From an uncultured Candidatus Saccharibacteria bacterium (lineage in GTDB: Bacteria; Patescibacteriota; Minisyncoccia; UBA6257; 2-01-FULL-56-20): DNA of 64,000 nucleotides. Under the pieces are notes generated by a model, which saw only the letters and a list, made by a program, of their open reading frames with translations, searched no databases and was not told the origin of the DNA. Within the stretch, counting starts at the first letter, position 1. The number at the start of each line of letters is the position of its first letter. The position numbers and the translations under genes were made by a program. Below are positions 3,964-60,983 of this stretch, piece by piece. The DNA lies in the NCBI GenBank assembly GCA_964387675.1, contig CAYLWL010000003.1, forward strand, positions 6,436 through 70,435, given 5' to 3'.

Positions 3964-4022
3964 GAAAAGGTCTGTGGATAACCAGACTTCCAAACGCCGC
4001 GCGAAGTTATACAATAAAAAAG

Positions 4023-4562: not shown

Positions 4563-4589
4563 CCGAATATGGTAGAGTAGGACATAAGC

Positions 4590-4889
4590 ATGGAGAATAA
4601 GTCTTCAAAAATGACAATTGATAAACTGGGAGAAATGAGCCAGCGGGAGTTTATCGCGATTCGTTCGGAAATGATGGACACGCGCGCAGAACTCAAAGAA
4701 GAGATACTTATATTAAGAGAAGATGTTTCTATTTTGCGTCGTGATATGGAAGCAGGTTTTCAGGGTTTAAGCGTGGGTATGAAAGAAATTATGATCAAAC
4801 TCAACGAAATTCAAGCTGATGTGATTGAAATTCACGATCTCCGCGGCAGGGTTGAGCGGCTGGAAAAGAAAGTCAGTTTATCAAACTAA
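4590..4889 (+). CDS. Hypothetical coiled-coil protein
   Basis: 99 aa and heptad-rich (ELKEEILILREDVSILRRDMEAG...). No family recognised. Confidence 0.4.
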   Translation: MENKSSKMTIDKLGEMSQREFIAIRSEMMDTRAELKEEILILREDVSILRRDMEAGFQGLSVGMKEIMIKLNEIQADVIEIHDLRGRVERLEKKVSLSN

Positions 4890-18082: not shown

Positions 18083-18670
18083 ATGGACTTCGAGCGCGAT
18101 TTCCCGAAATTACGGAGCGATATAGTGTTTCAAACCGGCTTGCTGGGCGAGCCGTTTACGTTTCACGGCACATGGGGGCTCTTCAGCCCGACGGCGATTG
18201 ACGAAGGAAGCAGGTTGCTTTTGGAGAATATAGAAATCAAAAAGAATGGCATATCTCTCGATATCGGCTGTGGATACGGAGCGCTCGGAATACCCATTGC
18301 GAAACTTTCCCCCGAAGGCAAAGCGCATCTCGTGGACAAAGATTATGTCGCCATAGAGTACGCCAAGAAAAACGCGAAACTCAACGGCGTCAATAACTGC
18401 GAGATATATTTAAGCAACGGATTCAGCAAGGTTCCAAACGTGGAATTCGACCTTATTGTTTCCAATTTGCCCGCCAAAGTCGGCAAAGAGCTTTTCTGGA
18501 TATTTCTTGACGACGCCAAAAAACACCTGAAACCCGGAGGCAGGATATATGTCGTTACCATCTCGGGACTCCGCGAATTCATAAAACGGAATTTCAACGA
18601 CTTCTTCGGGAACTACGAAAAAGTGAAACAAGGCAGGAGCTATACCGTCGGCCTGGCGGTGAAGAAATAG
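18083..18670 (+). CDS. Class I SAM-dependent methyltransferase, small-domain (RsmC/RlmG-like N2-G rRNA methyltransferase family)
   Basis: LDIGCGYGALGIPIA (motif I) and DLIVSNLP (NPP-like motif IV). 195 aa. Confidence 0.55.
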   Translation: MDFERDFPKLRSDIVFQTGLLGEPFTFHGTWGLFSPTAIDEGSRLLLENIEIKKNGISLDIGCGYGALGIPIAKLSPEGKAHLVDKDYVAIEYAKKNAKLNGVNNCEIYLSNGFSKVPNVEFDLIVSNLPAKVGKELFWIFLDDAKKHLKPGGRIYVVTISGLREFIKRNFNDFFGNYEKVKQGRSYTVGLAVKK

Positions 18671-19078
18671 CAGAGTTCGCTACACTTGCAGGCTTCTTAC
18701 TTTTTGATTTAAAATAACTAGCGCAAGCGGGGATTTTGGTAGGAGCAATCCTTGATGATCAAAATGGCAAGATAGAATAGTCAGTGCGCTATACTTTCAA
18801 AATATGAAACTCTACCGATTTAGCCCCATAGCAGACAAAGGACAACTCCTCGCGGCGATTGCGCATATCCACTTTGCGTGTTTTGAGTTATGCAAACAGG
18901 CCCTTGGTTATATGAGACCAAGAGACACGACAGAGAAAGTCAGAACGAAAATTGCTACGCCCACCACATAACCGCTCCCACTACATGTACCTAATATATA
19001 GATGCGATCGCAACTATATATTAGTTTGGTAAATTGTACTCCATTTGATTATGGTTCGGGTTTTGGTACAATCGATGT

Positions 19079-20236: not shown

Positions 20237-20328
20237 CAATGCAAAATGTAAAAATGAATAAATTAAAAGTCGTGTCCGCAGGACCCCATAATTTTGCATT
20301 TTGATATTTACATTTTGCGTTTACCAGC
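20237..20328. repeat. Family F intercistronic element (copy 1 of 2); copy 2 at 24002-24113
   Basis: AAAAATCAAAAATCAAAATGACAATGCAAAATGTAAAA...GTCGTGTCCGCAGGACCCC...ATTTTGCATTTTG contains internal inverted repeats (CAAAATGCAAAAT / ATTTTGCATTTTG). Confidence 0.7.
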
Positions 20329-20982
20329 ATGAAAGCCACCGTTTACAATTTGAAGAACGAAAAAGTGGGCGAGATGGAATTGCCATCGTCGATCTTCGAA
20401 GCGAAGTGGAACCCCGTGCTCGTGGCGCAGGTTTTGCGCGCCCAGCTTGCCAACTCGCGCCGGCCTTGGGCTCACGCGAAAACGAGAGCCGAAGTGCGCG
20501 GCGGAGGCAGAAAACCCTGGAGACAAAAAGGAACAGGCAGAGCGAGGCACGGCTCTACTCGTTCTCCTCTCTGGGTCGGCGGCGGAAAAGCGCACGGCCC
20601 GAACAAACTCCGCGATTATAGCCAGAAAGTCAATAAAAAAATGGCCCGCTTGGCGCTTTTTTCCGCGCTCGCCAAGAAGCTCAAAGAGAACCAGCTCAAA
20701 GTGTTCGAAGACATGAACATTGCGGAGCCGAAAACCAAAGTCCTTTCCGCGACTCTCAAGCATCTTTTAAATTTGAAAAAAGATCACAAGAAGATGGACG
20801 TGCTCATGGTCGCCGACCGAGAGAACGCGAACGTTCGGCGCGCCTCATCTAACCTGGTGAAAGCGAAAACACTCGACGCACAATCGCTTAACATCTACGA
20901 CGTTTTGAACCACAAGAATATTTTCGTCGATAAAGCATCGGTTGGCGCGCTCACGAAACACTATGCTAGAAAACAGAAATGA
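20329..20982 (+). CDS. rplD: 50S ribosomal protein L4
   Basis: RGGGRKPWRQKGTGRARHGS...GGGKAHGP. Confidence 0.9.
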   Translation: MKATVYNLKNEKVGEMELPSSIFEAKWNPVLVAQVLRAQLANSRRPWAHAKTRAEVRGGGRKPWRQKGTGRARHGSTRSPLWVGGGKAHGPNKLRDYSQKVNKKMARLALFSALAKKLKENQLKVFEDMNIAEPKTKVLSATLKHLLNLKKDHKKMDVLMVADRENANVRRASSNLVKAKTLDAQSLNIYDVLNHKNIFVDKASVGALTKHYARKQK

Positions 20983-21058
20983 GAAATGAGACATGAGACA
21001 TGAGAAATGAGGAACGAAATACACGAAACCTAATCCCTCATATCTCATATCTATCATT
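20983..21058. repeat. Family E intercistronic palindromic element (GAGAAATGAG...CTCATTTCTC type), copy 1
   Basis: Copies fill the spacers at 21332-21417, 22240-22314, 23251-23329, 26464-26533, 27102-27196, 27746-27835, 28737-28822 and 29261-29323. A diverged copy is at 28190-28271 and a partial one at 62605-62645. Confidence 0.75.
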
Positions 21059-21331
21059 ATGAATACTTTCATCATCAAAAAGCCATTGATTACGGAACGC
21101 GCGACGAATTTGAGCAAACTCGGCAAATATGTTTTTATGGTTGCCGATTTTGCCACGAAGCCGGAGGTCAAAAAAGCGGTCAAGGAAATTTATAAAGTTG
21201 ATGCCGTTTCCGTGAACATCGTGGTGAAGCCGTCCAAAAAGAAAAGGATGGGATCGCTCAAGGGTCGGCGTAAAGGTTATAAAAAGGCGATTGTTACCCT
21301 GAAGAAAGGGCAGAAAATCGAGATACAGTAA
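21059..21331 (+). CDS. rplW: 50S ribosomal protein L23
   Basis: LITERATNLSKLGKYVFMVADFATKPEVKKAVKEIYKVDAVSVNI. Confidence 0.9.
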   Translation: MNTFIIKKPLITERATNLSKLGKYVFMVADFATKPEVKKAVKEIYKVDAVSVNIVVKPSKKKRMGSLKGRRKGYKKAIVTLKKGQKIEIQ

Positions 21332-21417
21332 GAAACTAGAAATGAGACATGAGAAATGAGGAACGAAATACATAAAACCTAATCTCTCATCTCTAATTTC
21401 TCATATCTATAAAATCA
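21332..21417. repeat. Family E element, copy 2
   Basis: AGAAATGAGACATGAGAAATGAGGAACGAAATACATAAAACCTAATCTCTCATCTCTAATTTCTCATATCT. Confidence 0.75.
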
Positions 21418-22239
21418 ATGAAAACCTATTCACCAACAACTCCATCGAGGCGAAGCATGACCGGCGTTGACTACGGCGCCTTGAGCAAAAAGCAACCCTA
21501 TAAACCGCTTCTTGTTCGGCTCAAATCAAATGCCGGCAGAAACTCGCAAGGGAGAATCACCGTGCGCCACCAAGGTGGAGGCAACAAAAAGCTGTACAGG
21601 ATGGTCGACTTTATGCAGAATACCCTGAATGCCAAGGCGGCTGTGGAATCGATTGAATACGATCCGTACCGGACGGCGTTCATCGCTCTCATCAAATATC
21701 CGAACAACGCGAAGAGTTATATTCTTGCGCCGAATACGCTGAAAGCGGGAGACACCGTTTTGGTGGCCGAAGCGGCGCCCCTCAAAGTCGGTAATCGTCT
21801 GAAGATGAAGAACATCCCCGTCGGTTACCAGGTGCACAGCGCGGAACTTTTGCCGGGACATGGCGGGAAGCTCGCGCGCTCGGCCGGTTCGTACGCCGAG
21901 GTTTTGGCGAACGCCGACGGTTACACGGACTTGAAATTGTCTTCGGGAGAAGTGCGGCGCGTTCCGTGGGAAGGGTTCGCCTCCGTCGGGCAGGTTTCGA
22001 ACGCGGAGCATAATCTTGTCGTTATCGGCAAGGCGGGAAGATCGCGGTGGCTCGGCGTGCGCCCCACAGTGCGCGGAAAAGCGATGAACCCGGTTGATCA
22101 CCCCTACGGAGGAGGCGAAGGGAGCCAGCCGCGCGGCACGAGAAAACCGAAGACCCTGTGGGGCAAGATCACCGGCGGCCATAAAACTCGAAACAAAAAG
22201 AAGTGGTCGAGCAAGATGATAGTTAAACGCAGAAAGTAG
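21418..22239 (+). CDS. rplB: 50S ribosomal protein L2
   Basis: 273 aa. GRNSQGRITVRHQGGG...HPYGGGEG. Confidence 0.95.
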   Translation: MKTYSPTTPSRRSMTGVDYGALSKKQPYKPLLVRLKSNAGRNSQGRITVRHQGGGNKKLYRMVDFMQNTLNAKAAVESIEYDPYRTAFIALIKYPNNAKSYILAPNTLKAGDTVLVAEAAPLKVGNRLKMKNIPVGYQVHSAELLPGHGGKLARSAGSYAEVLANADGYTDLKLSSGEVRRVPWEGFASVGQVSNAEHNLVVIGKAGRSRWLGVRPTVRGKAMNPVDHPYGGGEGSQPRGTRKPKTLWGKITGGHKTRNKKKWSSKMIVKRRK

Positions 22240-22314
22240 AAATGAGGCATGAGAAATGAGGAACGAAATACACAAAACCTAATCTCTCATATCTAATTTC
22301 TCATATCTTTTACC
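22240..22314. repeat. Family E element, copy 3
   Basis: GAAATGAGGCATGAGAAATGAGGAACGAAATACACAAAACCTAATCTCTCATATCTAATTTCTCATATC. Confidence 0.75.
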
Positions 22315-22641
22315 ATGTCCAGAAGTTCCAAAAAGGGTCCCTACGTCGATCCAAAACTCTTAAAAAAGATTTCCAAACTGAAGCCGGAGAGCGCGCCGGT
22401 TATTAAAACGTGGTCCAGAGCATCCGAGATTTCTCCGGAAATGGTTGGTTTTATCATCGGCGTTCACAACGGCAAAGTGTTTACCGAGGTCAGAATTTCG
22501 GAGGATATGGTGGGCCATCGGCTCGGCGAGTTTTCTCCGACGAGAAAATTCGTGCGGCACGGCGGAAAGATACAAAAAGAACTGGAGCAAAAGACCGCGC
22601 AGGCAGCGGCTCCGGCGGCGGCAAAAGAAACCAAAAAGTAA
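22315..22641 (+). CDS. rpsS: 30S ribosomal protein S19 (with C-terminal extension)
   Basis: [15 protein letters not shown]...[13 protein letters not shown]. Confidence 0.9.
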
Positions 22642-22728
22642 TCACTAATAACGCGAATACCGGCAAATAACGCTAAGACGACTCGCATTATTACCTAAAA
22701 ACGATTAGCATTATTCGCGAATACTCCC
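22642..22728. repeat. Cargo-less (empty) copy of the AATAACGCGAATA / TATTCGCGAATACTCC inverted-repeat element that elsewhere carries the GxxExxY gene
   Basis: Both arms face each other with a ~50-bp spacer. The right arm ends at the rplV ATG. Confidence 0.6.
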
Positions 22729-23250
22729 ATGACGAAGCAAACGGCAAAACTGAATTACTTGCGAATGACGCCACGAAAAGTGCGGCTGGTTGCCGATCTT
22801 ATCAAGGGCCTGCCTATTAACGAAGCCGAGGCCCAGCTTTTGACGATCCGCAAAAGAGCTGCGGTGCCGCTGTTGAAACTTCTGCGTTCGGCGATGGCCA
22901 ACGTGAAGAACAATAAAAAGTTGAGCGAAGAGAGATTTTTCATAGAAACCTTGAAGGTGGACGGCGGGCCGATGCTCAAACGGTTCCTTCCGCGCGCGCG
23001 CGGCATGGCAACGCCGATTCAGAAAAAAATGAGCCACGTGACGATGGTGCTCGCGGAGCATCCGGACGCGAAGCCGCCTCGGTTCAAGATCGTAGTTCGG
23101 AAGAAAACCAAACTGCCGCCCGGTTCCGAGGGCCCGGTCCGGAGACAAAAGCCAGAGAGGCCGAAAAAGCCGGAACAGGAGGGAGCGAAACCGAAGTCGA
23201 CCGGTTTCTTCAAGAAACTATTCAGGCGGAAAGCCGGATTCGCTAAATAA
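22729..23250 (+). CDS. rplV: 50S ribosomal protein L22 (with basic C-terminal extension)
   Basis: RMTPRKVRLVADLIKGLPINEAEAQL... Confidence 0.9.
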   Translation: MTKQTAKLNYLRMTPRKVRLVADLIKGLPINEAEAQLLTIRKRAAVPLLKLLRSAMANVKNNKKLSEERFFIETLKVDGGPMLKRFLPRARGMATPIQKKMSHVTMVLAEHPDAKPPRFKIVVRKKTKLPPGSEGPVRRQKPERPKKPEQEGAKPKSTGFFKKLFRRKAGFAK

Positions 23251-23329
23251 GAAAACAGAAATGAGAAAGGAGAAATTAGGAACGCTTAACGACCTCATTT
23301 CTCATATCTAATCTCTCATCTCTAACACC
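23251..23329. repeat. Family E element, copy 4 (diverged)
   Basis: GAAATGAGAAAGGAGAAATTAGGAACG...CCTCATTTCTCATATCTAATCTCTCATCTC. Confidence 0.65.
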
Positions 23330-24001
23330 ATGGGACACAAAATTAATCCATTATCACTACGAGTCGGCGTCACGAAGAACTGGCCAGTCAGATGGTTTAT
23401 TAAAGGTAAGTACGCCAAGTTTTTGGAGGAGGACGAAGCGATACGGAACGTGATCAGGTTGAAAATCGGCCAGGCCGGCATTTCCGCGATCGAGATAGAA
23501 CGAACCCAAGGGAGCGTCAAAGTTTTCATCAAAGCCGCGAGGCCCGGGTTCGTAATCGGCCGAGGCGGAAAAGGCATCGAGGATCTGAACAAAGCAATAG
23601 AGAAGGCCTTGAAAAAGGTCCGCAAAGTAAAAACCGCGATTGCTTTAAGCGTGAACGTGGAGGAATTGAAGAGATCGGAAATCGCCGCGCCGTACGTCGC
23701 CCAGCAAATCGCCTGGGATCTCGAGAAGCGTCTGCCGTTCCGGAGAACGCTGAAAAAATATCTTGAAGGAATTATGCAAAACAGGGAAGTGAAGGGAGCG
23801 AAGATCATGATGTCGGGCAGATTGGACGGCAACGAAATAGCGAGGACGGAGTGGCTGGCCAAGGGGTCATTGCCTCTTCAGACATTCCGCGCCGACATCG
23901 ACTATGGAACATCCACCGCTTTTACGACCTATGGAACAATCGGAATAAAGGTGTGGATATATAAGGGCGAGATATTCGCTGACGCTCAAAATAAAAATTA
24001 A
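23330..24001 (+). CDS. rpsC: 30S ribosomal protein S3
   Basis: MGHKINPLSLRVGVTKNW..., with KH and S3-C domains. Confidence 0.9.
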   Translation: MGHKINPLSLRVGVTKNWPVRWFIKGKYAKFLEEDEAIRNVIRLKIGQAGISAIEIERTQGSVKVFIKAARPGFVIGRGGKGIEDLNKAIEKALKKVRKVKTAIALSVNVEELKRSEIAAPYVAQQIAWDLEKRLPFRRTLKKYLEGIMQNREVKGAKIMMSGRLDGNEIARTEWLAKGSLPLQTFRADIDYGTSTAFTTYGTIGIKVWIYKGEIFADAQNKN

Positions 24002-24113
24002 AAAATCAAAAATCAAGATGACAATGCAAAATGTAAAATTAAATAAATTAAAAGTCGTGTCCGCAGGACCCCTAAATTTTGCATTTTGATCTTTGCATTT
24101 TGCATTTACTGAT
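24002..24113. repeat. Family F element, copy 2
   Basis: Near-identical to 20237-20328. Confidence 0.7.
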
Positions 24114-24524
24114 ATGTTGATTCCAAAGAAAGTAAAACATCGTAAGTGGCAGAAAGGCCGCTCGAAGAGACGGCTTGTGGAAACGCGCGGTCTTACTTTG
24201 AATTATGGCCAATATGGTTTAAAATCCCTGGAAGCGGCGTGGCTCAATTCTCGCCAGATCGAGGCGGCGCGGAAAACCATAACGAATTTCTTGAAGCGCA
24301 GCGGCCGCCTGTGGATCAGGGTTTTTCCGGATAAACCGATCACTCAGCAAGCTCCGGAGAAAACGTTGGGCGGCGGCAAGGGCAGTGTCGAATATTATGT
24401 TTTTCCGGTGAGGCCGGGGAGGATTATTTTCGAGATTGACGGCGTTCCCAAAGAAACCGCCACCGAGGCGCTCCGGCTGGCTTCTTATAAACTGCCGTTC
24501 AAAAGCAGAATCATAACCAAATAA
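24114..24524 (+). CDS. rplP: 50S ribosomal protein L16
   Basis: MLIPKKVKHRKWQKGR... Start at the ATG at 24114. The ORF track's TTG at 24093 lies in the repeat. Confidence 0.9.
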   Translation: MLIPKKVKHRKWQKGRSKRRLVETRGLTLNYGQYGLKSLEAAWLNSRQIEAARKTITNFLKRSGRLWIRVFPDKPITQQAPEKTLGGGKGSVEYYVFPVRPGRIIFEIDGVPKETATEALRLASYKLPFKSRIITK

Positions 24525-24629
24525 CAAGCGAAATACTAATATACTAATTCGTGCGAATGATACTAATGGATACTAATTCGTATTATTTGTATCATTAGCA
24601 TGCATTCGTATATTGGTATCACATTATTC
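24525..24629. repeat. Family G element, copy 2
   Basis: Near-identical to 19565-19666. Ends at the rpmC start. Confidence 0.75.
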
Positions 24630-24836
24630 ATGAGAAAGAAAGAAATCCAAGAATTAAAAATGAAGCCCGCGGCCGAGCTCCAAAAGTTCCTGAAAGACGG
24701 ACGGGAACGGCTCCGCTCGTTGAAGTTCGATTTGGCCGCAGGCAAAGTGAAAAACGTGAAGGAGCTCCGCACGCTCAAAAAAGACCTCGCGAGAGCCAAC
24801 ACGTTCATACACGCTTCCCGGTCGGGGAATAAATAA
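24630..24836 (+). CDS. rpmC: 50S ribosomal protein L29
   Basis: MRKKEIQELKMKPAAELQKFLKDGRERLRSLKF. Confidence 0.85.
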   Translation: MRKKEIQELKMKPAAELQKFLKDGRERLRSLKFDLAAGKVKNVKELRTLKKDLARANTFIHASRSGNK

Positions 24837-24840
24837 ACTT

Positions 24841-25107
24841 ATGGAACAAGTCAAAAAAAGAAAAATAACCGGCGTCGTGGTCAGCGACAAAATGATGAAA
24901 ACGAGAGTGGTTGAGGTCAAACGATCGAAGAAGCACCCGAAGTATCTCAAGTACTACACGGTGACGACCAAGTTTAAAGCCCATGACGAAAAGAACGATT
25001 ACCACGTGGGCGATGTGGTTATTATGGAAGAAACCAGGCCTCTCTCGAAAGAGAAGAGGTGGCGCATTATTGGAGTAGTCGCTAATAATGCGAATAAAAA
25101 GAGGTAA
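24841..25107 (+). CDS. rpsQ: 30S ribosomal protein S17
   Basis: ITGVVVSDKMMKTRVVEVKR...YHVGDVVIMEETRPLSKEKRW. The last 8 codons (ANNANKKR) are encoded by the AATAACGCGAATA repeat arm. Confidence 0.9.
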   Translation: MEQVKKRKITGVVVSDKMMKTRVVEVKRSKKHPKYLKYYTVTTKFKAHDEKNDYHVGDVVIMEETRPLSKEKRWRIIGVVANNANKKR

Positions 25108-25160
25108 TAACGCGAATCCGCGTTATTAAATAAAAATTAGCGTTATTCGCGAATACTACA
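25078..25160. repeat. Second cargo-less copy of the AATAACGCGAATA/TATTCGCGAATACT element, overlapping the rpsQ 3' end and ending at the rplN ATG
   Basis: GCTAATAATGCGAATAAAAAGAGGTAATAACGCGAATCCGCGTTATTAAATAAAAATTAGCGTTATTCGCGAATACTACA. Confidence 0.6.
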
Positions 25161-25529
25161 ATGATCCAAGAACGCTCAATACTCAAGGTGGCCGACAACA
25201 GCGGCGCGAAGATCGTGCGGTGCTTTAGAATTCTGGGCGGCACAAGAAGGCGATACGCGAGGATCGGCGATATCATCGTGACCTCCGTTCAGGTGGCCGA
25301 GCCGCGCAAGACCATCAAGAAAAAAGACATTGTGAAGGTTCTGATCGTTCGGCAGAGAGCTCCGTTGCGGCGCAAAGACGGCTCGTATATCCGTTTCGAC
25401 GACAACGCCGTCGTGGTGATAGATGCCAAGCGCGAGCCGGTCGCGACAAGAATCTTCGGCCCGATGCCGCGCGAGCTCAAAGAAAAAGGGTTCGATACCC
25501 TTATGACAATGGCGGAAGAAATCGTATAA
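25161..25529 (+). CDS. rplN: 50S ribosomal protein L14
   Basis: MIQERSILKVADNSGAK... Confidence 0.95.
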   Translation: MIQERSILKVADNSGAKIVRCFRILGGTRRRYARIGDIIVTSVQVAEPRKTIKKKDIVKVLIVRQRAPLRRKDGSYIRFDDNAVVVIDAKREPVATRIFGPMPRELKEKGFDTLMTMAEEIV

Positions 25530-25630
25530 GCGAGATACTAATATACTAATTCGTGCGAATGATACTAATGAATACTAATTCGTATTATTTGTATCATTAG
25601 CATGCATTCGTATATTGGTATCACATGTAT
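25530..25630. repeat. Family G element, copy 3
   Basis: Near-identical to 19565-19666. Confidence 0.75.
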
Positions 25631-25936
25631 ATGAACATTAAAAAAGGTGACCAAGTAAAAATTCTTTCCGGAAAAGACCGGGGCAAAACCGGAGCCGTGT
25701 TAAACGTTTTCCCGAAAGACGGGAAAATTTCGGTGGAAGGATTGAACGTGTATAAAAAACGGGTGCGCCCGAAGCGCCAGGGGCAGAAGGGCGAAACGGT
25801 TTTAGTGCCGAGGTCTTTTTACGCTTCCAAGGCGATGGTGATCTGTTCGAATTGCAAAGAGCCGGCTCGTTTGGGTCATCGTTTGGAAGGCAAGAAGAAG
25901 GTCCGCTACTGCAAAAAGTGTAAAGCGGCGATATAG
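25631..25936 (+). CDS. rplX: 50S ribosomal protein L24 with C-terminal C4 zinc-ribbon-like extension
   Basis: KOW motif KKGDQVKILSGKDRGKTG. The C-terminus CSNCKEPARLGHRLEGKKKVRYCKKCK replaces the usual L24 C-terminal half. Confidence 0.85.
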   Translation: MNIKKGDQVKILSGKDRGKTGAVLNVFPKDGKISVEGLNVYKKRVRPKRQGQKGETVLVPRSFYASKAMVICSNCKEPARLGHRLEGKKKVRYCKKCKAAI

Positions 25937-25944
25937 TAAGAAAC

Positions 25945-26463
25945 ATGACACAGCACAAATCTAAACAATCAAATCTTGGCTTTGAAGCAACAAAGTTTCT
26001 TGAGAAAGTTGTGATTGACGTTGGCGTGGGACGCTTGAGCGGCCAGCCGAATTTCGAAGAAAAAGCGCTCTCTCAAATCACGAAAGATCTCTCTCTCGTT
26101 GCTGGTCAGAAGCCGCAGGTGAGGCGCGCGAAGAAGTCAATCGCCGGATTCAAAACGAGGGAAGGCCAGATCGTCGGTTTAAGAGTAACGCTCCGAAAAA
26201 AGAAAATGGTTGATTTTTTCGAGCGGCTCATTAGAATAGTATTGCCGCGCGTGCGAGATTTCAGGGGGCTCGATCCGAACATTATCGATCAAGGCGGCAC
26301 GTTGAACATCGGCCTCAAGGAATCAGTTGTTTTTCCGGAAATCAACCCGGAGCAGTCGCCCATTTCATTTTCGCTGGGAATCAGCGCGGTTCCAAGAATA
26401 AAAAATCGGGAAAAATCAGTCGAACACTTCAGAGCCCTCGGGGTACCATTAAAAAAGAAATGA
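25945..26463 (+). CDS. rplE: 50S ribosomal protein L5
   Basis: FEATKFLEKVVIDVGVG...RDFRGL. Confidence 0.9.
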   Translation: MTQHKSKQSNLGFEATKFLEKVVIDVGVGRLSGQPNFEEKALSQITKDLSLVAGQKPQVRRAKKSIAGFKTREGQIVGLRVTLRKKKMVDFFERLIRIVLPRVRDFRGLDPNIIDQGGTLNIGLKESVVFPEINPEQSPISFSLGISAVPRIKNREKSVEHFRALGVPLKKK

Positions 26464-26533
26464 GAAATAAAGAAATGAGAAATTAGGATTTTCGTCCTCA
26501 TGTCTCATCTCTTATGCCTCATATCTTGTCACC
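26464..26533. repeat. Family E element, copy 5 (diverged)
   Basis: GAGAAATAAAGAAATGAGAAATTAGG...CCTCATGTCTCATCTCTTATGCCTCATATC. Confidence 0.65.
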
Positions 26534-26719
26534 ATGCCTAAAACATCCTGGATAGCAAGAAGTAAAAAACAGCCGAAACATAAAACACGCGACGTGAATC
26601 GGTGTTTTCGATGCGGCAGAAAACGCGGCTATATGCGGGATTTTAATCTTTGCAGGATTTGTTTTCGGGAAATGGCGAGCCATCAAGAGATACCCGGAGT
26701 AAAAAAAGCAAGCTGGTAA
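26534..26719 (+). CDS. rpsN: 30S ribosomal protein S14 (type Z, zinc-binding)
   Basis: 61 aa. [23 protein letters not shown]. Confidence 0.9.
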
Positions 26720-26723
26720 ATTC

Positions 26724-27101
26724 ATGTATTACGATTTATTGCCAAAACTGAAGAATGCCGAAGCCGCGGGGAAAGAAACGGTTTTGGCGCCTTTTTCCAA
26801 GATGGATCTGAGCGTCTGCAAAATTCTTGCCGACGCCGGTTATATCAAAGACGCCAAAGAAAAAACACTGGGCCGCAAGAGATTTATCGAAATCCGGATG
26901 TTCGGCAGAAGAAAGCGCCTCATCAACGGCGTGAAGATTATGAGCAAGCCAAGCAGGCATTTGTATTTTTCGTATACCGACCTCCGCCCGGTGAAAAGCG
27001 GCCACGGGATCGGCGTCATATCGACTTCCAAAGGGATGATGACGCAAAAAGAAGCCAGAAAAAAGAAGGTCGGCGGGGAATATTTGTTCCAAATATGGTG
27101 A
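26724..27101 (+). CDS. rpsH: 30S ribosomal protein S8
   Basis: YYDLLPKLKNA...ILADAGYIKD...GIGVISTSKGMMT. Confidence 0.9.
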   Translation: MYYDLLPKLKNAEAAGKETVLAPFSKMDLSVCKILADAGYIKDAKEKTLGRKRFIEIRMFGRRKRLINGVKIMSKPSRHLYFSYTDLRPVKSGHGIGVISTSKGMMTQKEARKKKVGGEYLFQIW

Positions 27102-27196
27102 ATAGCTAGAAATCAGATATGAGATATGAGACATGAGAAATGAGGGACGAAATAAAAACCTAATTTCTCATTTCTAATTACTCATCTCTAACTACC
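27102..27196. repeat. Family E element, copy 6
   Basis: GATATGAGATATGAGACATGAGAAATGAGGGACG...CCTAATTTCTCATTTCTAATTACTCATCTCTAAC. Confidence 0.75.
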
Positions 27197-27745
27197 ATGA
27201 GCCGTTTAATCAAAAAACCAGTTCAAATATTGCCCGGCGTCCAGGTAAAAATAGACGGCGACTTTTTGGTTTTTAACGGCCCGAAAGGCGAGAACCGGCT
27301 CAGGATACCGGCATCGGTTGAGTTAAAAATTGACGCGGAGAACATTTGGCTCACGGCGAAAACGGAAAGCGAGCTCAATAAGGCCGTGTACGGAACAACG
27401 TGGTCGCTCATCAGGAATTCCGTGAATGGCGCCGCGAACGGCTTTATGAAGGTTTTAGAGATTGAGGGGGTTGGCTACCGCGCGGCTCTTGAGGGCAAGG
27501 AATTGGTTCTCTCGCTGGGTTATGTGAATCCGGTGCGCGTCAAGGTGCCGGACGGCATCGCAATCGAGGTTGAGAAAAACGTCATAAAAGTTTCCGGACA
27601 CGATAAAGATTTAGTCGGCAGAACCGCCTCGACTATCCGGGCCCTCAAAAAACCGGAGCCGTACAAGGGAAAGGGAATCCGATATCGGGGAGAAATTATC
27701 CGGAGGAAGGTCGGCAAGAAAGCGGGAGCGACGGCCGCCACATAA
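27197..27745 (+). CDS. rplF: 50S ribosomal protein L6
   Basis: MSRLIKKPVQILPGVQVKIDGDFLVFNGPKGE. Confidence 0.9.
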   Translation: MSRLIKKPVQILPGVQVKIDGDFLVFNGPKGENRLRIPASVELKIDAENIWLTAKTESELNKAVYGTTWSLIRNSVNGAANGFMKVLEIEGVGYRAALEGKELVLSLGYVNPVRVKVPDGIAIEVEKNVIKVSGHDKDLVGRTASTIRALKKPEPYKGKGIRYRGEIIRRKVGKKAGATAAT

Positions 27746-27835
27746 GAAATAAGACATGAGAAATGAGAGATGAGGAACGGAACACGTAAAAACCTAATTT
27801 CTCATTTCTAATTACTCATCTCTATTATATATACC
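27746..27835. repeat. Family E element, copy 7
   Basis: GACATGAGAAATGAGAGATGAGGAACGG...CCTAATTTCTCATTTCTAATTACTCATCTCTATT. Confidence 0.75.
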
Positions 27836-28189
27836 ATGAACCCCAGAAAACGTCTCAACAAAATACGGACGCGACGAACGGCAAGAACACGGGCCAAGAT
27901 TTTCGGCACGGCGAAAAAGCCGCGTCTTGCCGTGTCGCGCAGTAACCGTTATATTTATGCCCAGTTGATCAACGACGAAGCTGGACGAACCGTGGTTCAT
28001 GGTTCGGGCCAGGAGGTGAAGGGCAAGAAGCCGAAAACGGAAGTTGCCGCCTTGGTGGGAGAGTTGATCGGAAAAAGGGCGGTGGAAAAAGGGGTTACCT
28101 CGGCGGTTTTTGATCGCCGCGCGTATAAGTATCATGGTCGAATTAAGGCGCTGGCCGAAGGAGCGCGAAAGGCCGGACTTAAGTTATAA
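27836..28189 (+). CDS. rplR: 50S ribosomal protein L18
   Basis: [23 protein letters not shown]. Confidence 0.9.
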
Positions 28190-28271
28190 GACATCAGAAA
28201 CTAGACATCAGAAATCAGAACGTAGCCAACCCAAACTAATTACTGATAACTGATAACTAATCCCTATTAAT
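28190..28271. repeat. Diverged family E-like element (CATCAGAAAT...CTGATAACTGAT variant)
   Basis: GACATCAGAAACTAGACATCAGAAATCAGAACG...TAATTACTGATAACTGATAACTAAT has the same architecture with CAG/CTG in place of GAG/CTC. Confidence 0.55.
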
Positions 28272-28736
28272 ATGTTTCGACGTCCCGAGAAAAACTTAAA
28301 AAAAGAAGAGTTCAAAGATAAGGTGTTGGATCTGCGGCGGGTTACTCGCGTTGTTGCCGGAGGAAAACGCTTTCGTTTTCGCGCCACCGTGGTGCTTGGC
28401 GATGAGAAAGGCAGGGTGGGCATAGGCGTGGCGAAGGGGCTCGATGTCGCTCAATCCGTGGCGAAAGCGAAAACGGCGGCAAATAAGAATATGATGAGGA
28501 TTCCCCTTAAAGACGAACGGACGATAGCTCACGAGGTGTACGCGAAATACAGCGCCGCCAAGGTGCTCTTGAAGCCCGCCGGTTCCGGCCACGGTCTCCG
28601 GGCCGGAGGAGCGGTGCGTTCCGTGTTGGCCTTGGTCGGCATAAAAGACGCTACCGCGAAATGTCTTGGCAGGACCCCCAACAAACTGACGAATGCCATG
28701 GCAACGCTCGAGGCGTTGAAAAAATTAAAAGCATGA
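28272..28736 (+). CDS. rpsE: 30S ribosomal protein S5
   Basis: RVTRVVAGGKRFRFRATVVLGDEKGRVGIGVAKG. Confidence 0.9.
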   Translation: MFRRPEKNLKKEEFKDKVLDLRRVTRVVAGGKRFRFRATVVLGDEKGRVGIGVAKGLDVAQSVAKAKTAANKNMMRIPLKDERTIAHEVYAKYSAAKVLLKPAGSGHGLRAGGAVRSVLALVGIKDATAKCLGRTPNKLTNAMATLEALKKLKA

Positions 28737-28822
28737 AAAGGAATTAGACGAGAGACATTAGACATTAGGAACGACTTACATAAAACCTAATTTCTCATTT
28801 CTAATTACTCATCTCTATTACC
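28737..28822. repeat. Family E element, copy 8 (occupies the position where rpmD/L30 is normally found)
   Basis: AGACATTAGACATTAGGAACGACTTACATAAAACCTAATTTCTCATTTCTAATTACTCATCTCTATT. Confidence 0.7.
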
Positions 28823-29260
28823 ATGCAGCTGCACGAGCTCAAAAAATTCAGAAATAAAAACAAAAAACGCATCGGCCGCGGCGGCAAGCGCGGCAGTTAT
28901 TCGGGGCGCGGCGTGAAGGGTCAGAAATCGAGAGCGGGGAGGAGGATTCGCCCGGCAGAAAGAGATTTGATTATACGCCTGCCGAAGCGGCGCGGTTTTC
29001 GAAACAAACCCAAGAGTCCCAAGCCGATGGTTTTCAACCTGAAAGATTTGTCGAAGTATATCAAGACCCATTCCGAGAAAGGGAAAAGTTTGGTTATCGA
29101 TAAAACGTTCTTGCGGGAAGTCGGTCTTGTGCCGACCCATTATCGCGGTGAAGTGAAAATCTTGGGAATGGGAGAGGTGTATGCCCCCGTGAAAGTTCAA
29201 GGATTAAAATTGTCGAAGAGTGCTAAGATGAAGGTTGAGAAAGTAAGATATGAGAAATGA
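28823..29260 (+). CDS. rplO: 50S ribosomal protein L15
   Basis: KRIGRGGKRGSYSGRGVKGQKSRAG. Confidence 0.9.
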   Translation: MQLHELKKFRNKNKKRIGRGGKRGSYSGRGVKGQKSRAGRRIRPAERDLIIRLPKRRGFRNKPKSPKPMVFNLKDLSKYIKTHSEKGKSLVIDKTFLREVGLVPTHYRGEVKILGMGEVYAPVKVQGLKLSKSAKMKVEKVRYEK

Positions 29261-29323
29261 GATATGAGGGACGGAACGTATAAAAACCTAATTTCTCATC
29301 TCTAATTACTCATCTCTATTGCC
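29261..29323. repeat. Family E element, copy 9
   Basis: GATATGAGAAATGAGATATGAGGGACGG...CCTAATTTCTCATCTCTAATTACTCATCTCTATT. Confidence 0.75.
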
Positions 29324-30595: not shown

Positions 30596-30906
30596 TTTTT
30601 TGAAGAACCTGCTCCGGCGGCGAAAATGATATTCGCTCGGCTTAATTTTTTAAGCAAACGAAGCGGTTCCCGTCGCGTTTTTCGCTCCGACCATTTCGTT
30701 TGCAGATAAAAAATTCGCGCCTCGTTCGTTCATTTTTATGCCGCCTCCACTTACGGTTCCTCAAAAAGCTATTCTTCGCCTTGGTGAAAACCGTTTCTGT
30801 TTCCGATAACCCCACCGCAAAAGAGTTATTCCTGCGCTCGAAAAGAAAACATCATACCAAGAACTTGCGCTACGAGCGGTAGTTTTATAAAATACGAGAA
30901 GCCATT

Positions 30907-31449
30907 TTGTTACAAAGCGGGGAGGCCGGCGTGAGAGAACTGAAAGCCGTGATAATCCTTGCCGTGCTTGTGCTGGGATCGGTGATTGTCTACCGGCCCG
31001 TCGCGGATTTCGCAAGATCGTTTCCGTATAAGTTCGAAGCACGCGGCTACGTTGTTGTAGACGCAAGCCGGGAAATTCAAAAGCGATTCGACTCGGCAGT
31101 TCCTCAAGGGTCTTATGGAAATGCGAATGGCCCGGTGATTTTCTATTCATCTTTCTACGACGAGTCAACCCGCACTTATTTCTACAGAATCAGAAATAAT
31201 TCCAACAAGGAATTTTACGCCAGGTCCAGGATCTTTTTGATACTTCTGGGAGAGGCGAGCGTCGCGATTTCTTCGAAGAACGACCTTTATGCGGGGGTTC
31301 AGGACTTGCGTCCGCCCGTTGAGAGGGAGGAAACTTTGTATCTCGCCGACGATAGATACTCGCTAAACCTTAGCCGCGGCATTGGAATGAAGCTTGTGAT
31401 GCCGGAAGAAAAACCGCAGCATCATTTGGTGTGGAGGCCGCGTTATTAA
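30907..31449 (+). CDS. Hypothetical membrane-anchored protein
   Basis: N-terminal TM (AVIILAVLVLGSVIVY). No recognisable family. It sits where adk normally follows secY directly. Confidence 0.35.
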   Translation: MLQSGEAGVRELKAVIILAVLVLGSVIVYRPVADFARSFPYKFEARGYVVVDASREIQKRFDSAVPQGSYGNANGPVIFYSSFYDESTRTYFYRIRNNSNKEFYARSRIFLILLGEASVAISSKNDLYAGVQDLRPPVEREETLYLADDRYSLNLSRGIGMKLVMPEEKPQHHLVWRPRY

Positions 31450-33557: not shown

Positions 33558-33664
33558 GCGAAATACCAATATACTAATTCGTGCGAATGATACTAATCAT
33601 ACTAATAACAGATTCGTATTATTTGTATCATTAGTATGCATTCGTATATTGGTATCACATTTTT
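33558..33664. repeat. Family G element, copy 4
   Basis: Near-identical to 19565-19666, with a small internal duplication. Ends at the lysS start. Confidence 0.75.
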
Positions 33665-35110
33665 ATGCTTGACGACCTCATTAACGAACGGTTAAAAAAA
33701 CTCGACGAGATCAAGAAGGCCGGCCTTGATCCGTATCCTGCGAGCGCCGCGAGAACCTTGGAAATTGCGGAGGCGCGCAAGAAGTTTGACGAGTTGAGCG
33801 CGAGCAAAAAGAGCGTGGTGTTGGCGGGGCGCCTTATGAGTATGCGGGATCAGGGCAATATTTCTTTTTTGGATCTGGCCGACGAGAGCGGGAAAATCCA
33901 GATCGTTTTCAAAAAGGATATTCTGTCGAAGTTCGATTTCTGGAAAGATGTTTTGGATATAGGCGATTTCGTTGAGGCCGGCGGCGTTCTTTTTAAGACG
34001 CAGAAAGGCGAGGAAAGTTTGGAGGTCCACGATTTTCGCATGCTCACTAAATCGCTTCGTCCGATACCGAGCGAGTGGTACGGCGTGCAGGATATAGAGA
34101 CACGCCTTCGCAAGCGGTATTTGGATTTGATCGCCAACAAGGAAACGCGGGAGTTATTCAGAAAAAAAGCCGTTTTCTGGCAGACCATTCGGAATTTTAT
34201 GATCAGGCAGGGATTTTTGGAGGTGTGGACGCCGGTTCTCGAAAACATTCCCGGCGGCGCGGACGCCGAGCCGTTTGTTACTCACCACAATGCTCTAGAC
34301 AGGGATTTTTACCTGCGCATTTCGCTCGAATTGCCGCTCAAGCGACTGCTTGTCGGCGGCTACGACAAGGTCTTCGAAATCGGCCGGCTTTTCAGAAACG
34401 AGGGTATCGACCGCGAGCATTTGCAGGAATATGACGATATGGAATTTTACTGGGGCTACGCCGATTACAAAGATGGCATGAAGTTTGTGGAAAAGTTGTT
34501 CAAGGCGGTCGTTAAAAACGCCGTCGGTTCGATGGAAACCGAATATGAGGGCGCCAAAATCAACTGGGACGGGAAGTGGCCAAAAGTTGATTATTTCTCG
34601 GCGTTCAAAAAAGAAGCGGGCTTGGATTTGAACAAAGTTAATGAAGATGCGTTAAGAAAAAAAGCTCGGGATTTGGGGGTTGCCGTTGACGTTACGTCGG
34701 GCAAGGGGCGACTCATAGACGCGATTTACAAAAAAACCGTAAGGCCAAAACTAATCCAGCCGTGTTTTTTGGTCGGCCATCCGGTGGAAATATCGCCCTT
34801 GGCGAAAGCGGACTCCAAGAATCCCAAGAAAGTTTTGCGTTTTCAGGTTGTGGCGGGAGGCACGGAATTGGGTAACGGTTTTTCAGAGCTCAATGACCCG
34901 ATTGATCAAAAAGAGCGTTTTCAGGCGCAAATGAAGTTGCGCGAAGCTGGCGACAAGGAGGCGCAGATGCTGGACGAGGATTTTGTGGAAGCGTTGGAGT
35001 ACGGCATGCCACCGGCGGTGGGCTTCGGCGTGAGCGAGCGACTGTTCGCGGTGTTGATGAATAAGCCCGTGAGAGAGACGGTGATTTTTCCTCCGATGCG
35101 TTTGGAGTAA
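33665..35110 (+). CDS. lysS: Lysyl-tRNA synthetase (class II)
   Basis: OB anticodon-binding N-terminus. Class II motifs FRNEG, and motif 3 near ERLFAVLMN. Confidence 0.9.
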   Translation: MLDDLINERLKKLDEIKKAGLDPYPASAARTLEIAEARKKFDELSASKKSVVLAGRLMSMRDQGNISFLDLADESGKIQIVFKKDILSKFDFWKDVLDIGDFVEAGGVLFKTQKGEESLEVHDFRMLTKSLRPIPSEWYGVQDIETRLRKRYLDLIANKETRELFRKKAVFWQTIRNFMIRQGFLEVWTPVLENIPGGADAEPFVTHHNALDRDFYLRISLELPLKRLLVGGYDKVFEIGRLFRNEGIDREHLQEYDDMEFYWGYADYKDGMKFVEKLFKAVVKNAVGSMETEYEGAKINWDGKWPKVDYFSAFKKEAGLDLNKVNEDALRKKARDLGVAVDVTSGKGRLIDAIYKKTVRPKLIQPCFLVGHPVEISPLAKADSKNPKKVLRFQVVAGGTELGNGFSELNDPIDQKERFQAQMKLREAGDKEAQMLDEDFVEALEYGMPPAVGFGVSERLFAVLMNKPVRETVIFPPMRLE

Positions 35111-35111
35111 T

Positions 35112-35572
35112 CGCGAATAACGCGAATAATCGGATGAATAACGCGAATAGTAAAATAGTCCTGCCAGAATTAAGTTACTCCATAATCGGAGCCGCCTTTA
35201 GAGTTTTTAATGAATTGGGGTGGGGATTTTCAGAAAAACATTATCAAGGTGCGCTCGCGAAGGAATTAGAAGATGCGGGTCTGCTATTTCGCCGAGAGGT
35301 TTATATCCCCTTCACTTACAAAAGTTCAACCATAGGTCGTTACTTTGCCGATTTCATTGTTAACGATAAGATTCTCCTAGAACTTAAAGTAGTTCCAAAA
35401 TTTGGATACGTTCATTTACATCAGGCATTGGGTCACTTGCATAGTGCAAAGTTGAAACTAGGAATATTAATCTACTTTACACGCGAAGGAATAAAGTATC
35501 GGAGGGTTGTTAATCCGGATGTATAATAATTCGCGTTATTTAATTAAAGATTCGAGTTATTCGCGATTACTC
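35112..35572. mobile_element. Inverted-repeat-bounded cassette carrying a GxxExxY (PD-(D/E)XK) gene
   Basis: Left arm CGCGAATAACGCGAATAATCGGATGAATAACGCGAAT contains the cargo start codon. The right arm is its reverse complement (ATTCGCGTTATTTAATTAAAGATTCGAGTTATTCGCG) and ends at the ATG of the next gene. Empty copies are at 22642-22728 and 25078-25160. Confidence 0.55.
35134..35526 (+). CDS. GxxExxY family protein (PD-(D/E)XK nuclease fold)
   Basis: 130 aa with a GALAKELEDAG motif. The N-terminal MNNANSK is encoded by the repeat arm. Confidence 0.8.
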   Translation: MNNANSKIVLPELSYSIIGAAFRVFNELGWGFSEKHYQGALAKELEDAGLLFRREVYIPFTYKSSTIGRYFADFIVNDKILLELKVVPKFGYVHLHQALGHLHSAKLKLGILIYFTREGIKYRRVVNPDV

Positions 35573-35573
35573 C

Positions 35574-35993
35574 ATGGCTAAGGTGATGGTTTTCGGTGTT
35601 TTCGATGGCATTCATGAGGGCCATCGAGCGCTTTTTCGAGAAGCAAAAAAATACGGCAAATACTTGGTCGCCGTGGTCGCGCAAGACAGGACGGTCGAAT
35701 ACTTGAAGGGCCATCTCCCGAAATATACTTTGGCGAAAAGAATCGAGGACTTGCAAAAAGAAAAACTGGTTAATGAAGTGGCGCTCGGCGACGCCGAGCC
35801 GGGAAGTTATGAAGTCATACTCAAGCATCGGCCGGACGTTCTCGCGCTCGGTTATGACCAGGAAGATTTCAAAGAAAACCTCGAGGAAAATCTGGAAAGA
35901 TTCGATTGGCGGCCGGAGATCGCGGTCTGTCGCTCCTACGAGCCGGAGAAATATCACAGCCACCTGCTTCATTTTGGCAAGTATAAAAATTAA
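35574..35993 (+). CDS. Cytidylyltransferase-like nucleotidyltransferase (HxGH motif; FAD synthetase N-domain-like)
   Basis: FGVFDGIHEGH, then a YLVAVV Rossmann-like segment. 139 aa. Confidence 0.55.
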   Translation: MAKVMVFGVFDGIHEGHRALFREAKKYGKYLVAVVAQDRTVEYLKGHLPKYTLAKRIEDLQKEKLVNEVALGDAEPGSYEVILKHRPDVLALGYDQEDFKENLEENLERFDWRPEIAVCRSYEPEKYHSHLLHFGKYKN

Positions 35994-60830: not shown

Positions 60831-60983
60831 ATGGGCGGCGTACCGGTAAAACATCACTCAAAAGGAAAAGTAGGCCGGAGACGGTCTCATTTGGCGCTCA
60901 AAAAGCAGCGTCTTTTCGTTTGTGCAAACTGCGGCGGGCCAAAGGTGGCGCATCGGGTTTGCAGACAGTGCGGGAAGTCGTAG
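60831..60983 (+). CDS. rpmF: 50S ribosomal protein L32 (zinc-binding form); below the 60-aa ORF-track cutoff
   Basis: Manually translated: MGGVPVKHHSKGKVGRRRSHLALKKQRLFVCANCGGPKVAHRVCRQCGKS. It matches the bacterial L32 pattern RR.H.AL......C.NCG.PK..HRVC..CG. Confidence 0.8.
   Translation: MGGVPVKHHSKGKVGRRRSHLALKKQRLFVCANCGGPKVAHRVCRQCGKS

Follow-up and report, generated by a model that had tools for sequence, protein, structure and literature searches.

GxxExxY genes enclosed by iterated-heptamer palindromic arms, and ORF-less hairpins of the same arms, at operon junctions of Patescibacteria

The intervening sequences (IVSs) of bacterial rRNA genes, as described in Leptospira and Coxiella, are cassettes of ~400–500 nt in which a long stem of inverted repeats closes a loop with an open reading frame (ORF) of ~120–130 amino acids (aa). 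In Coxiella, the inverted repeats contain tandem GACAGAT heptamers before the S23p ORF, the IVS is excised by RNase III, while its origin and its mobility are still described as unclear (PMC4990558); ORFs of the 23S_rRNA_IVP family (IVP below) have been found inside rRNA insertions of the Candidate Phyla Radiation (CPR) (PMC11270868). A second described system, REPIN/RAYT, consists of hairpin doublets of a short repeat scattered between genes and of a low-copy protein gene with inverted copies of that repeat on both sides; every protein clade has its own repeat family (PMC3116915, PMC3337134, PMC5581495). Here we describe three related elements in a 64-kb stretch of contig CAYLWL010000003.1 (the window, 64,000 nt in full), which comes from a small-genome groundwater bacterium. 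Element A lies between lysS and a nucleotidyltransferase gene and carries a gene of the GxxExxY family between palindromic arms; elements B and C, which lie between ribosomal-protein genes, consist of the same arms without an ORF.

We regard A as the ORF-bearing form and B and C as the ORF-less forms of one family of IVS-like, REPIN/RAYT-like palindromic elements, in which the nuclease and the heptamer arms act as a unit that seeds ORF-less hairpins; we hold this reading with somewhat more confidence than doubt. The comparisons below show that the GxxExxY gene and its arms are inherited as one unit, with the arm motif tracking the protein clade, that these arms occur as ORF-less hairpins many times more often than as full elements, and that the elements stand at different operon junctions in different Paceibacteria, sister genomes being compact.

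The likeness to rRNA IVSs is considerable. Both are cassettes of ~400–500 nt with a long stem of inverted repeats and a loop ORF of ~120–130 aa, the arms of both contain tandem heptamer-type units (CGCGAAT in the window), both are sporadic among relatives, and ORF-less versions of both exist. The window also bears two IVP cassettes, and in L125, the closest relative (stretches from other genomes are given as L numbers), an IVP cassette occupies the junction that holds GxxExxY in the window. Unlike rRNA IVSs, the window elements lie between protein-coding operon genes (lysS, nucleotidyltransferase, ribosomal-protein genes) and not in rRNA, their cargo is a PF13366 protein of the PD-(D/E)XK nuclease fold and not the S23p/PF05635 four-helix bundle that the sibling cassettes of the window and L125 carry, the family has many ORF-less copies per genome, and the arms give stop codons and coding sequence to their neighbours. 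Excision by RNase III is a feature of the rRNA IVSs, whereas the window elements are known from their sequence and folds. With REPIN/RAYT the window family shares the scattered hairpins, the low-copy gene between inverted copies of the same repeat, the clade-specific repeat families, a mostly vertical long-term inheritance and the lack of a target-site duplication. It differs in that its protein is of the PD-(D/E)XK fold and not an IS200/IS605-type HUH tyrosine transposase, its arms are tandem CGCGAAT(AA) units and not palindromic REPs with a GTAG or CGTC head, and its elements stand at stop/start junctions within operons of CPR hosts and not mainly after convergent genes.

Six homologous arms of ~46 nt are present in the window as three inverted pairs, one of which encloses an ORF (A) while two do not (B and C; Table 1). 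Their alignment has the consensus RGAGTAATCGCGAATAAYGCGAAT, followed by N7–11 variable bases and AATAAYGCGAAT; the basic unit is CGCGAAT(AA), with two units in tandem and a third ~21 nt further in. The arms have RGAGTA as their head and, apart from a short TTCGCGAA core, are not self-palindromes. The 13-mer AATAACGCGAATA with at most two mismatches occurs 13 times in the window versus 2.5 ± 1.6 times in shuffles, none of which reaches 13. An nhmmer hidden Markov model (HMM) built from the six arms has exactly six significant matches in the 64 kb (E 5e-10 to 8e-15), so the cargo-less copies that the first-pass annotation had proposed are relatives of the arms of A and not unrelated palindromes. 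Further arm copies of the GCAAAGAGC type at 13210–13239 were considered and rejected; these are lysine/glutamate codons within fusA.

Element A occupies the entire junction between lysS and the cytidylyltransferase-like nucleotidyltransferase gene downstream, and when the whole cassette is folded, both the minimum-free-energy and the centroid structure have the two arms paired in a long stem that closes the ORF. The left arm includes the end of lysS, namely its last two codons and its stop (TTG GAG TAA, 35102–35110), and LysS ends in PPMRLE in the window versus PLM(R/K)xKK in three relatives. At the other end, the final base of the right arm is the A of the nucleotidyltransferase ATG (35574–35576), as the first-pass annotation had it. 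The same annotation had placed the cargo start codon in the left arm, which is borne out: the ATG (35134) lies in the spacer between the arm's two sub-repeats, and MNNAN is the translation of AATAACGCGAAT, so the N-terminus is arm-encoded. The residues MNNANSK precede the family profile, which begins at residue 12, and the N-termini of several homologues begin alike (MQISANNANKI, MRMMTNNANKIG, MQMEANNANQS). No promoter-like or terminator-like site was found at element A on the + strand, and the cargo is therefore most likely co-transcribed with the flanking genes. The cassette was found identical in the NCBI metagenome-assembled genome (MAG) GCA_016204365.1, a Liptonbacteria-like CPR bacterium, and in five independent Logan assemblies, and thus is not an assembly artefact.

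The cargo protein matches TIGR04256 over the whole profile (1–116 of 116; 109.2 bits, cutoff 35; E 1.4e-31) and PF13366 (105.6 bits, cutoff 22; E 2.7e-30). These are its sole Pfam and NCBIfam matches; it is not an IS200/IS605-like HUH tyrosine transposase. Its motif is G31-x-x-E34-x-x-Y37, and E34, D73 and E83-x-K85 (E83-L-K85 in the cargo) are conserved across 50 homologues. The protein has a Cas4/Hjc-like minimal PD-(D/E)XK core with the E..D..ExK residues intact. Comparison with the homologue in L129 gives dN/dS of ~0.03 (dS saturated), that is, purifying selection. No sequence homologue of the cargo was found in the PDB. PDDEXK_3 is listed as a family of unknown function (PMC3424549), and in the literature searched GxxExxY is rarely mentioned and its palindromic-arm context is not described.

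A small stand-alone nuclease-fold protein with a Cas4-like core could also be an anti-phage defence or toxin-type nuclease whose gene merely lies between unrelated palindromes. We consider this very improbable and close to refuted: GxxExxY matched none of the PADLOC defence-system models and has no partner genes, it is always found within housekeeping operons and co-directional with them, and its arms are homologous and accompany the gene over ~27 loci.

The arms were searched in other genomes with the exact outer 22 nt of the arm, one genome per species, at ~9 chance matches expected by our own estimate. At least 118 stretches were found, all but two from Patescibacteria MAGs; the two others, from Bacilli (L090) and Colwellia (L111), are at about the chance level. 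Among the matches listed, the arm-bearing MAGs belong to Liptonbacteria, Wolfebacteria, Colwellbacteria, Harrisonbacteria and others. Over the arm-selected loci, the arm HMM gave 86 inverted pairs, 80 of them with a gap of −12 to 91 nt and no ORF; where the gap is 374–510 nt, all six pairs carry a GxxExxY ORF, 58–65% identical to that of the window. The sampled stretches of one Liptonbacteria MAG alone hold ~17 ORF-less pairs and one full element.

A search from the protein side yielded 80 metagenomic loci encoding GxxExxY relatives. For genes at least 53% identical to the cargo, 27 evaluable loci carry the arm family of the window, with arms on both sides in 26 and on one side only in L155. 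The view of the first-pass annotation that gene and palindromic arms form one unit is thus upheld from both directions. A sister clade of GxxExxY (48–56% identical) has CGAATATACGAAT/CTAATATACTAAT arms. Among distant relatives from other phyla (29–45% identical), ~26 of 44 evaluable genes are flanked by significant inverted repeats of other iterated units, namely CACGGAG, CGCAGAG, ACGCGGAT, ACGCAGAT, ACAGAT and ACGCAAAG; no rRNA was found in 20 of the distant loci. Protein identity correlates with shared flank 7-mers (Mantel r = 0.42, 0 of 2000 permutations as high), also when distant relatives alone are taken (r = 0.18, 0 of 2000). The idea that arm motifs are built as stop codons in all frames was rejected, since the CACGGAG and CGCAGAG families contain none.

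The gene–repeat association also occurs in cultured hosts, which are usable for experiments; a homologue from Treponema saccharophilum is WP_040842287.1. Plasmid pTS1 of Treponema saccharophilum (L214, 1425–1885) has a 16-nt inverted repeat containing CACGGAT around its GxxExxY gene, and plasmid 1 of Gemmatirosa kalamazoonensis (L215, 1890–1962) has a 73-nt hairpin with three CGCGGAT units per arm directly after the GxxExxY gene.

In the arm-bearing genomes we also observed head-to-tail arrays of two to three arms (L019 9–144, with a 57-nt period; L130 3380–3543; L134 3405–3556; L025 4561–4657 and 5952–6047), which are often stacked to one side of a full element. In several MAGs, an ORF-less element lies just upstream of an apparent 16S rRNA 5′ end (L010 ~1889–1975, L013 ~5251, L042 ~1901–1982); the downstream sequence (…ACTtatttatGAGAGTTTGATCC) is what we take to be the conserved 5′ end of the 16S rRNA gene, and the left flank tagttgtcccaattt recurs at these loci.

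The ORF-less elements B and C lie between genes whose identities (rpsS, rplV, rpsQ, rplN), like that of lysS, are confirmed by profile matches. The first-pass annotation had placed them at 22642–22728 and 25078–25160, and element A at 35112–35572; the elements stand, with arms that begin a few bases further out on both sides (Table 1). The stop of rpsS (TAA, 22639–22641) sits inside the AGTAA of the arm of B, and the rplV ATG is at 22729. Element B is a degenerate copy, in which the fold of the sense strand is no more stable than that of shuffles (z = +0.23) but the antisense strand does fold better (z = −2.95). Element C adjoins the rplN ATG at 25161 and has an RNA fold of −32 kcal/mol (z = −6.05).

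In element C, the arm also extends the upstream protein. The profile match of S17 stops at residue 76–77 of 88, before an arm-encoded tail, and frame 0 of the arm reads GV(I/V)ANNAN. Seven S17 orthologues from related genomes, which end in ...RW(R/K/N)I(I/V)(G/K)K.., have short unlike tails (e.g., GKIEKK, GKT, KKL, GKISKS), and none has ANNANKKR, so the tail in the window is arm-derived. An arm origin had been proposed in the first-pass annotation for the last eight residues; the origin is confirmed by this comparison, and the extent is ten residues (VVANNANKKR).

The spacers of the arms (window 25096–25107; L149, L150 and JAUSKB loci) often contain (G)GAGG, with the ATG of AATAATG 4–6 nt on, and in element C the spacer bases matching this motif encode the KKR-stop end of S17. 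The GAGG or GGAGG before the ATG in many stop-side arms may be a built-in ribosome-binding site for the cargo.

The placement of arms at gene ends seen in the window is general. Within a set of 218 non-redundant arms, 102 abut the 3′ end of a gene, and in 85 of these the distance of the stop codon from the AGTA anchor is −6 to +12; the stop is the arm's own TAA (AG-TAA) in 28 and a TAA further inside in 18, and 14 upstream genes read at least 21 nt into the arm, as S17 does. A gene start is abutted by 77 of the 218, with the ATG 2–3 nt from AGTA (0–1 nt from the end of RGAGTA) in 47. This exact placement means that the base of the stem sets the upstream stop beside the downstream start. The precision follows in part from the very short spacers of compact CPR operons (4–10 nt in relatives).

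Among 47 oriented ORF-less elements (window and L007–L212), the antisense strand is the better folder in 36, with a mean of −36.6 kcal/mol versus −31.6 kcal/mol for the mRNA strand (Wilcoxon p = 1.7e-5). Where the sense strand has C-A mismatches, its complement has G-U/G-T pairs, and element B is an extreme case. This bias may reflect selection weakening the mRNA stem or a functional template-strand DNA hairpin, and mutational bias could also contribute, the sense strand being A-rich; it speaks against a function in mRNA structure alone. Single variable arm positions show a weak orientation bias, and arm polarity can be seen in some genomes, through their spacer types alone. The better folding of the bottom strand also suggested integron attC sites; these were rejected, as the arms lie on both sides of the ORF and the elements are dispersed in housekeeping operons with no array; TIGR-Tas arrays were rejected because their layout is unlike.

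These data bear directly on a host-serving role, in which the hairpins would be RNase III sites, mRNA stabilisers or devices coupling stop to start, and GxxExxY would be a domesticated maintenance or processing factor whose substrate might be RNA, as it is for tRNA-splicing endonucleases, which have the same fold. The base of the stem coincides exactly with the stop and start codons, the elements lie within the most highly expressed essential operons, and the cargo is under strong purifying selection and is kept at the same junctions over deep divergence; REPIN/RAYT systems have been argued to be such long-term residents (PMC5581495). However, in four of eight sister genomes the junctions of this operon are ≤40 nt long and free of hairpins, hairpin sequences are unrelated among genomes and among junctions of one genome, the mRNA strand is usually the weaker folder, and element B no longer folds on that strand. 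An Rfam scan of the window gave two tRNAs only, with no match at the elements and no rRNA. On balance, a host-serving role seems quite unlikely to us.

We compared the S10/spc–secY–lysS region with genomes whose SecY is 83–92% identical. In a matrix of the S10/spc junctions of eight genomes (SecY 83–88% identical), the junctions are compact in four and enlarged by hairpins of differing families in the other four. The S19–L22 junction measures 27–39 nt, without arms, in L126, L128 and L209 versus 87 nt in the window, and the S17–L14 junction measures 4–35 nt, again without arms, in L128, L212, L210, L126 and L209 versus 53 nt.

The junction between lysS and the nucleotidyltransferase gene is a hot spot. 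The GxxExxY cassette is present there in the window and in L129; L126 has a 4-nt gene overlap, ATGA, and no arms (16646–16649); L125 has a 23S_rRNA_IVP cassette with different arms (TTAGCCACTAGCC..TAGGGT; 8596–9020); L127 has a third, AT-rich palindrome (17410–17632); and L128 has an unrelated 111-aa ORF (18602–18937). The right arm of the IVP cassette in L125 takes in the first 8 nt of the downstream gene (ATGGCTAA), and the nucleotidyltransferase of the window has the same N-terminus (MAK...), which hints that an IVP cassette occupied this junction of the window earlier. A full/empty pair, as which the first-pass annotation had read A and the cargo-less copies, is not what this comparison gives: B and C are ORF-less copies elsewhere, and the true empty sites of A in relatives have no arms.

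At least 11 different junctions carry full elements, which in every case run in the direction of the gene upstream; the junctions include pilB–pilC, prfB–ftsE, lysS–nucleotidyltransferase, a junction between two glycosyltransferase genes and ftsX–response regulator. In L038, pilB and pilC form a compact overlap. At prfB–ftsE, L030 has an ~80-nt remnant with one arm, and the other eight loci are full. Arm similarity is higher within than between MAGs (z = 6.4), down to private spacer variants. Presence and absence at junctions together with genome-specific arm variants point to proliferation, and comparison of genomes thereby supports a putatively mobile element.

The same site comparisons allow homing into hairpins to be weighed. 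According to this explanation, ORF-less hairpins arise otherwise and GxxExxY is a free-standing homing-type nuclease gene, which cuts the centres of cognate hairpins and is copied into the loop by arm-homology repair, so that the arms are the target and not the vehicle. PD-(D/E)XK homing endonucleases are known, I-Ssp6803I being one, and enzymes of this fold are often dimers acting on palindromes. As with free-standing homing endonuclease genes, we have a small nuclease gene in a defined context that is found elsewhere without the ORF, although here the gene is in neither an intron nor an intein and lies in a palindrome that itself has many copies. The ORF stands exactly at the loop position between intact two-unit arms, with the polarity of the ORF-less copies, protein clade and arm family are coupled strictly one to one, the missing target-site duplication would be expected, and the one-armed remnant of L030 at an otherwise full junction fits as well. 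Against this, relatives without the gene at lysS–nucleotidyltransferase or pilB–pilC have compact junctions or other families and no hairpin of this kind, we found no junction at which one genome has a clean ORF-less pair where a close relative has a full element, and the cargo is no more alike within a site than between sites (identity ~60–70% irrespective of site). The multiplication of ORF-less hairpins is also left unexplained. We judge homing unlikely.

Several observations weigh against the reading of A, B and C as forms of an element seeded by its nuclease. Target-site duplications were tested in 57 non-redundant pairs at all boundary offsets with k = 2–8; none of 3 nt or more was found, and the only signal, a weak one of 2 nt, is explained by the ATG/stop context. 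No recent insertion, no near-identical copies and no strain-level insertion polymorphism were found, and the search for strain-level relatives that would give exact insertion junctions returned none, the exact L14 protein being on record in the source MAG alone. The arms of the window are just 70–85% alike, so the copies are old. In the close genome pair L149/L155, the cargo diverges in step with its flanks, which indicates vertical inheritance, and GxxExxY is kept at prfB–ftsE and pilB–pilC across genomes whose flanking proteins are 50–75% identical, a pattern that suggests hot spots or persistence over a long time more than active jumping. Within a pair, the two arms resemble each other less than random arms do (z = −2.8, 57 pairs), T is almost never present in both partners at arm positions +9 and +18, and recurrent mismatches are kept. 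Repeats are absent from the flanks of ~18 of the 44 distant GxxExxY genes. The family is without demonstrated activity and is not a known transposase family, and an unrelated non-nuclease protein, 23S_rRNA_IVP, is found in the same cassette type, so the ORF may not be what moves the hairpin.

It should be noted that two further explanations were rejected on the same data. A recent exchange of cargo between L149 and L155, suspected from 92% aa identity, is contradicted by a cargo nucleotide identity of 98.7%, equal to that of the flanks; the two differ by a 30-nt deletion in one arm. Homogenisation or compensatory change within elements does not agree with partner arms that are no more alike than random ones.

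The lack of a target-site duplication also means that the family is not one of classical miniature inverted-repeat transposable elements (MITEs), with which it shares terminal inverted repeats, small size and many dispersed copies. A same-ended partner exists (A and ~30 others); its ORF encodes a protein of a nuclease fold that is not known to have transposase activity. Of the non-autonomous mobile elements proposed in the first-pass annotation, the proliferation thus remains and the classical MITE does not. The Correia elements (NEMIS) of Neisseria are ~100–150 bp long, with inverted ends and many intergenic copies, are co-transcribed with neighbouring genes and have stems cut by RNase III. 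The ORF-less elements of the window are likewise small and inverted-ended, with many copies between genes; in contrast to the Correia elements, which duplicate a TA target and have no known ORF partner, they show no duplication and have one.

Elements B and C are part of a wider filling of the operon, which, like the IVP cassettes, the first-pass annotation had overlooked. Nearly every S10/spc junction of the window (20237–29323) is occupied by a hairpin of 63–95 nt, from at least three further families beside the B/C arms, and the greA–lysS junction is also hairpin-filled (107 nt). The ATACTAAT/CGAATGATAC type resembles the arms of the sister GxxExxY clade. In the sister genomes L126, L128, L209 and L210, the S10/spc junctions are ≤40 nt; other genomes of the group are compact or filled with other families, e.g., TTAGCT/AGCTAAAAGCT and GCGGATATGCGCGGAT. 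Both IVP ORFs of the window are flanked by inverted repeats of their own iterated motif, which is the design of the GxxExxY cassette and of the classical rRNA IVS.

Table 1. Positions of the elements, their parts and the other hairpins and cassettes of the window.
Feature	Position	Strand	Remarks
Full element A (left arm, GxxExxY ORF, right arm)	35103–35574	+	46-nt inverted repeat, 83% complementary
Left (stop-side) arm of A	35103–35148	+	TGGAGTAATCGCGAATAACGCGAAT-AATCGGATG-AATAACGCGAAT; nhmmer E 7.6e-15
Cargo ORF, GxxExxY/PDDEXK_3	35134–35526	+	130 aa; TIGR04256, PF13366
Right (start-side) arm of A	35529–35574	−	nhmmer E 7.7e-15
ORF-less element B, rpsS–rplV	22636–22735	+	nhmmer arms 22636–22683 (+, E 5e-10) and 22678–22735 (−, E 3.3e-13)
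ORF-less element C, rpsQ–rplN	25065–25167	+	nhmmer arms 25065–25122 (+, E 1.7e-14) and 25111–25167 (−, E 3e-14)
Arm-encoded C-terminal tail of S17, with stop	25075–25107	+	VVANNANKKR; arm frame 0
GAAATGAGA-type hairpins	20983–21058, 21332–21417, 22240–22314, 23251–23329, 26464–26533, 27102–27196, 27746–27835, 28737–28822, 29261–29323		
ATGCAAAATGTAAAA-type hairpins	20237–20328, 24002–24092		
ATACTAAT/CGAATGATAC-type hairpins	24525–24599, 25530–25624, 33558–33664		25530–25624: −39.8 kcal/mol
23S_rRNA_IVP cassette	2701–3190 (ORF 2743–3114)		PF05635 four-helix bundle; arms AGTAGGTGGTAAGTAGTAAGTAGTAGGT, 93% complementary
23S_rRNA_IVP cassette	60983–61392 (ORF 61020–61370)		PF05635 four-helix bundle; arms GCAAAGAGCAAAGGGCCGAGGGCAAAG, 78% complementary

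Elsewhere in the window, secY is followed by a 311-nt gap (30596–30906) with a very stable fold (−92.7 kcal/mol) and no Rfam match, and then by an ORF (30907–31449) with no Pfam match in the source annotation. L125 has a block of ~3 kb between secY and adk (1846–4848) that is not in the window; it contains three genes without a Pfam match (two, then one), an N6/N4 methyltransferase–Mrr fusion and a ParE toxin gene.

Taken together, our results support a model in which two arms of iterated 7–9-nt units (CGCGAAT[AA]) would pair into a long stem whose loop may be occupied by a small ORF. The family appears to have multiplied within genomes, its ORF-less forms behaving as non-autonomous derivatives. 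The iterated units that the nuclease would recognise are those of its own arms, probably in the form of a DNA hairpin or cruciform, given the better folding of the antisense strand; the enzyme may make a break that leads to copying by repair, or may act in a hairpin-type transposition without target duplication. At the RNA level, the stem would join the flanking stop and start codons and, like the stems of rRNA IVSs, may be cut by RNase III, which would explain why insertion is tolerated in ribosomal-protein operons. In the long term, the family looks closer to REPIN/RAYT, being mostly vertical with a cargo under purifying selection, than to a fast-moving transposon.

The GxxExxY element looks like an undescribed relative of the intervening sequences of rRNA genes. 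A wider reading, which we put forward tentatively and would not yet favour, is that GxxExxY with iterated-heptamer arms constitutes a large undescribed superfamily of palindromic elements from CPR to Spirochaetota and Gemmatimonadota, each clade reading its own arms and seeding ORF-less hairpins, with the classical rRNA IVSs as one branch. If true, this would be a PD-(D/E)XK counterpart of REPIN/RAYT. The origin and mobility of classical rRNA IVSs have reportedly gone unexplained since 1990; if recognition of arms by the nuclease holds across phyla, there would be a new superfamily and the old IVS question would become testable, with a candidate enzyme, a defined DNA/RNA substrate and cultured hosts for asking about the nature of rRNA-type IVSs and their way of moving. 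A context would be gained for two abundant orphan families, GxxExxY and 23S_rRNA_IVP, and a nuclease that reads tandem 7–9-nt units would be interesting as a recognition system that looks programmable. For annotation, gene starts, gene ends and "hypothetical" tails in such genomes can be repeat-derived. In supposedly streamlined CPR genomes, the most essential operons can be heavily loaded with hairpin repeats, which rewrite the termini of core proteins, S17 and LysS among them.

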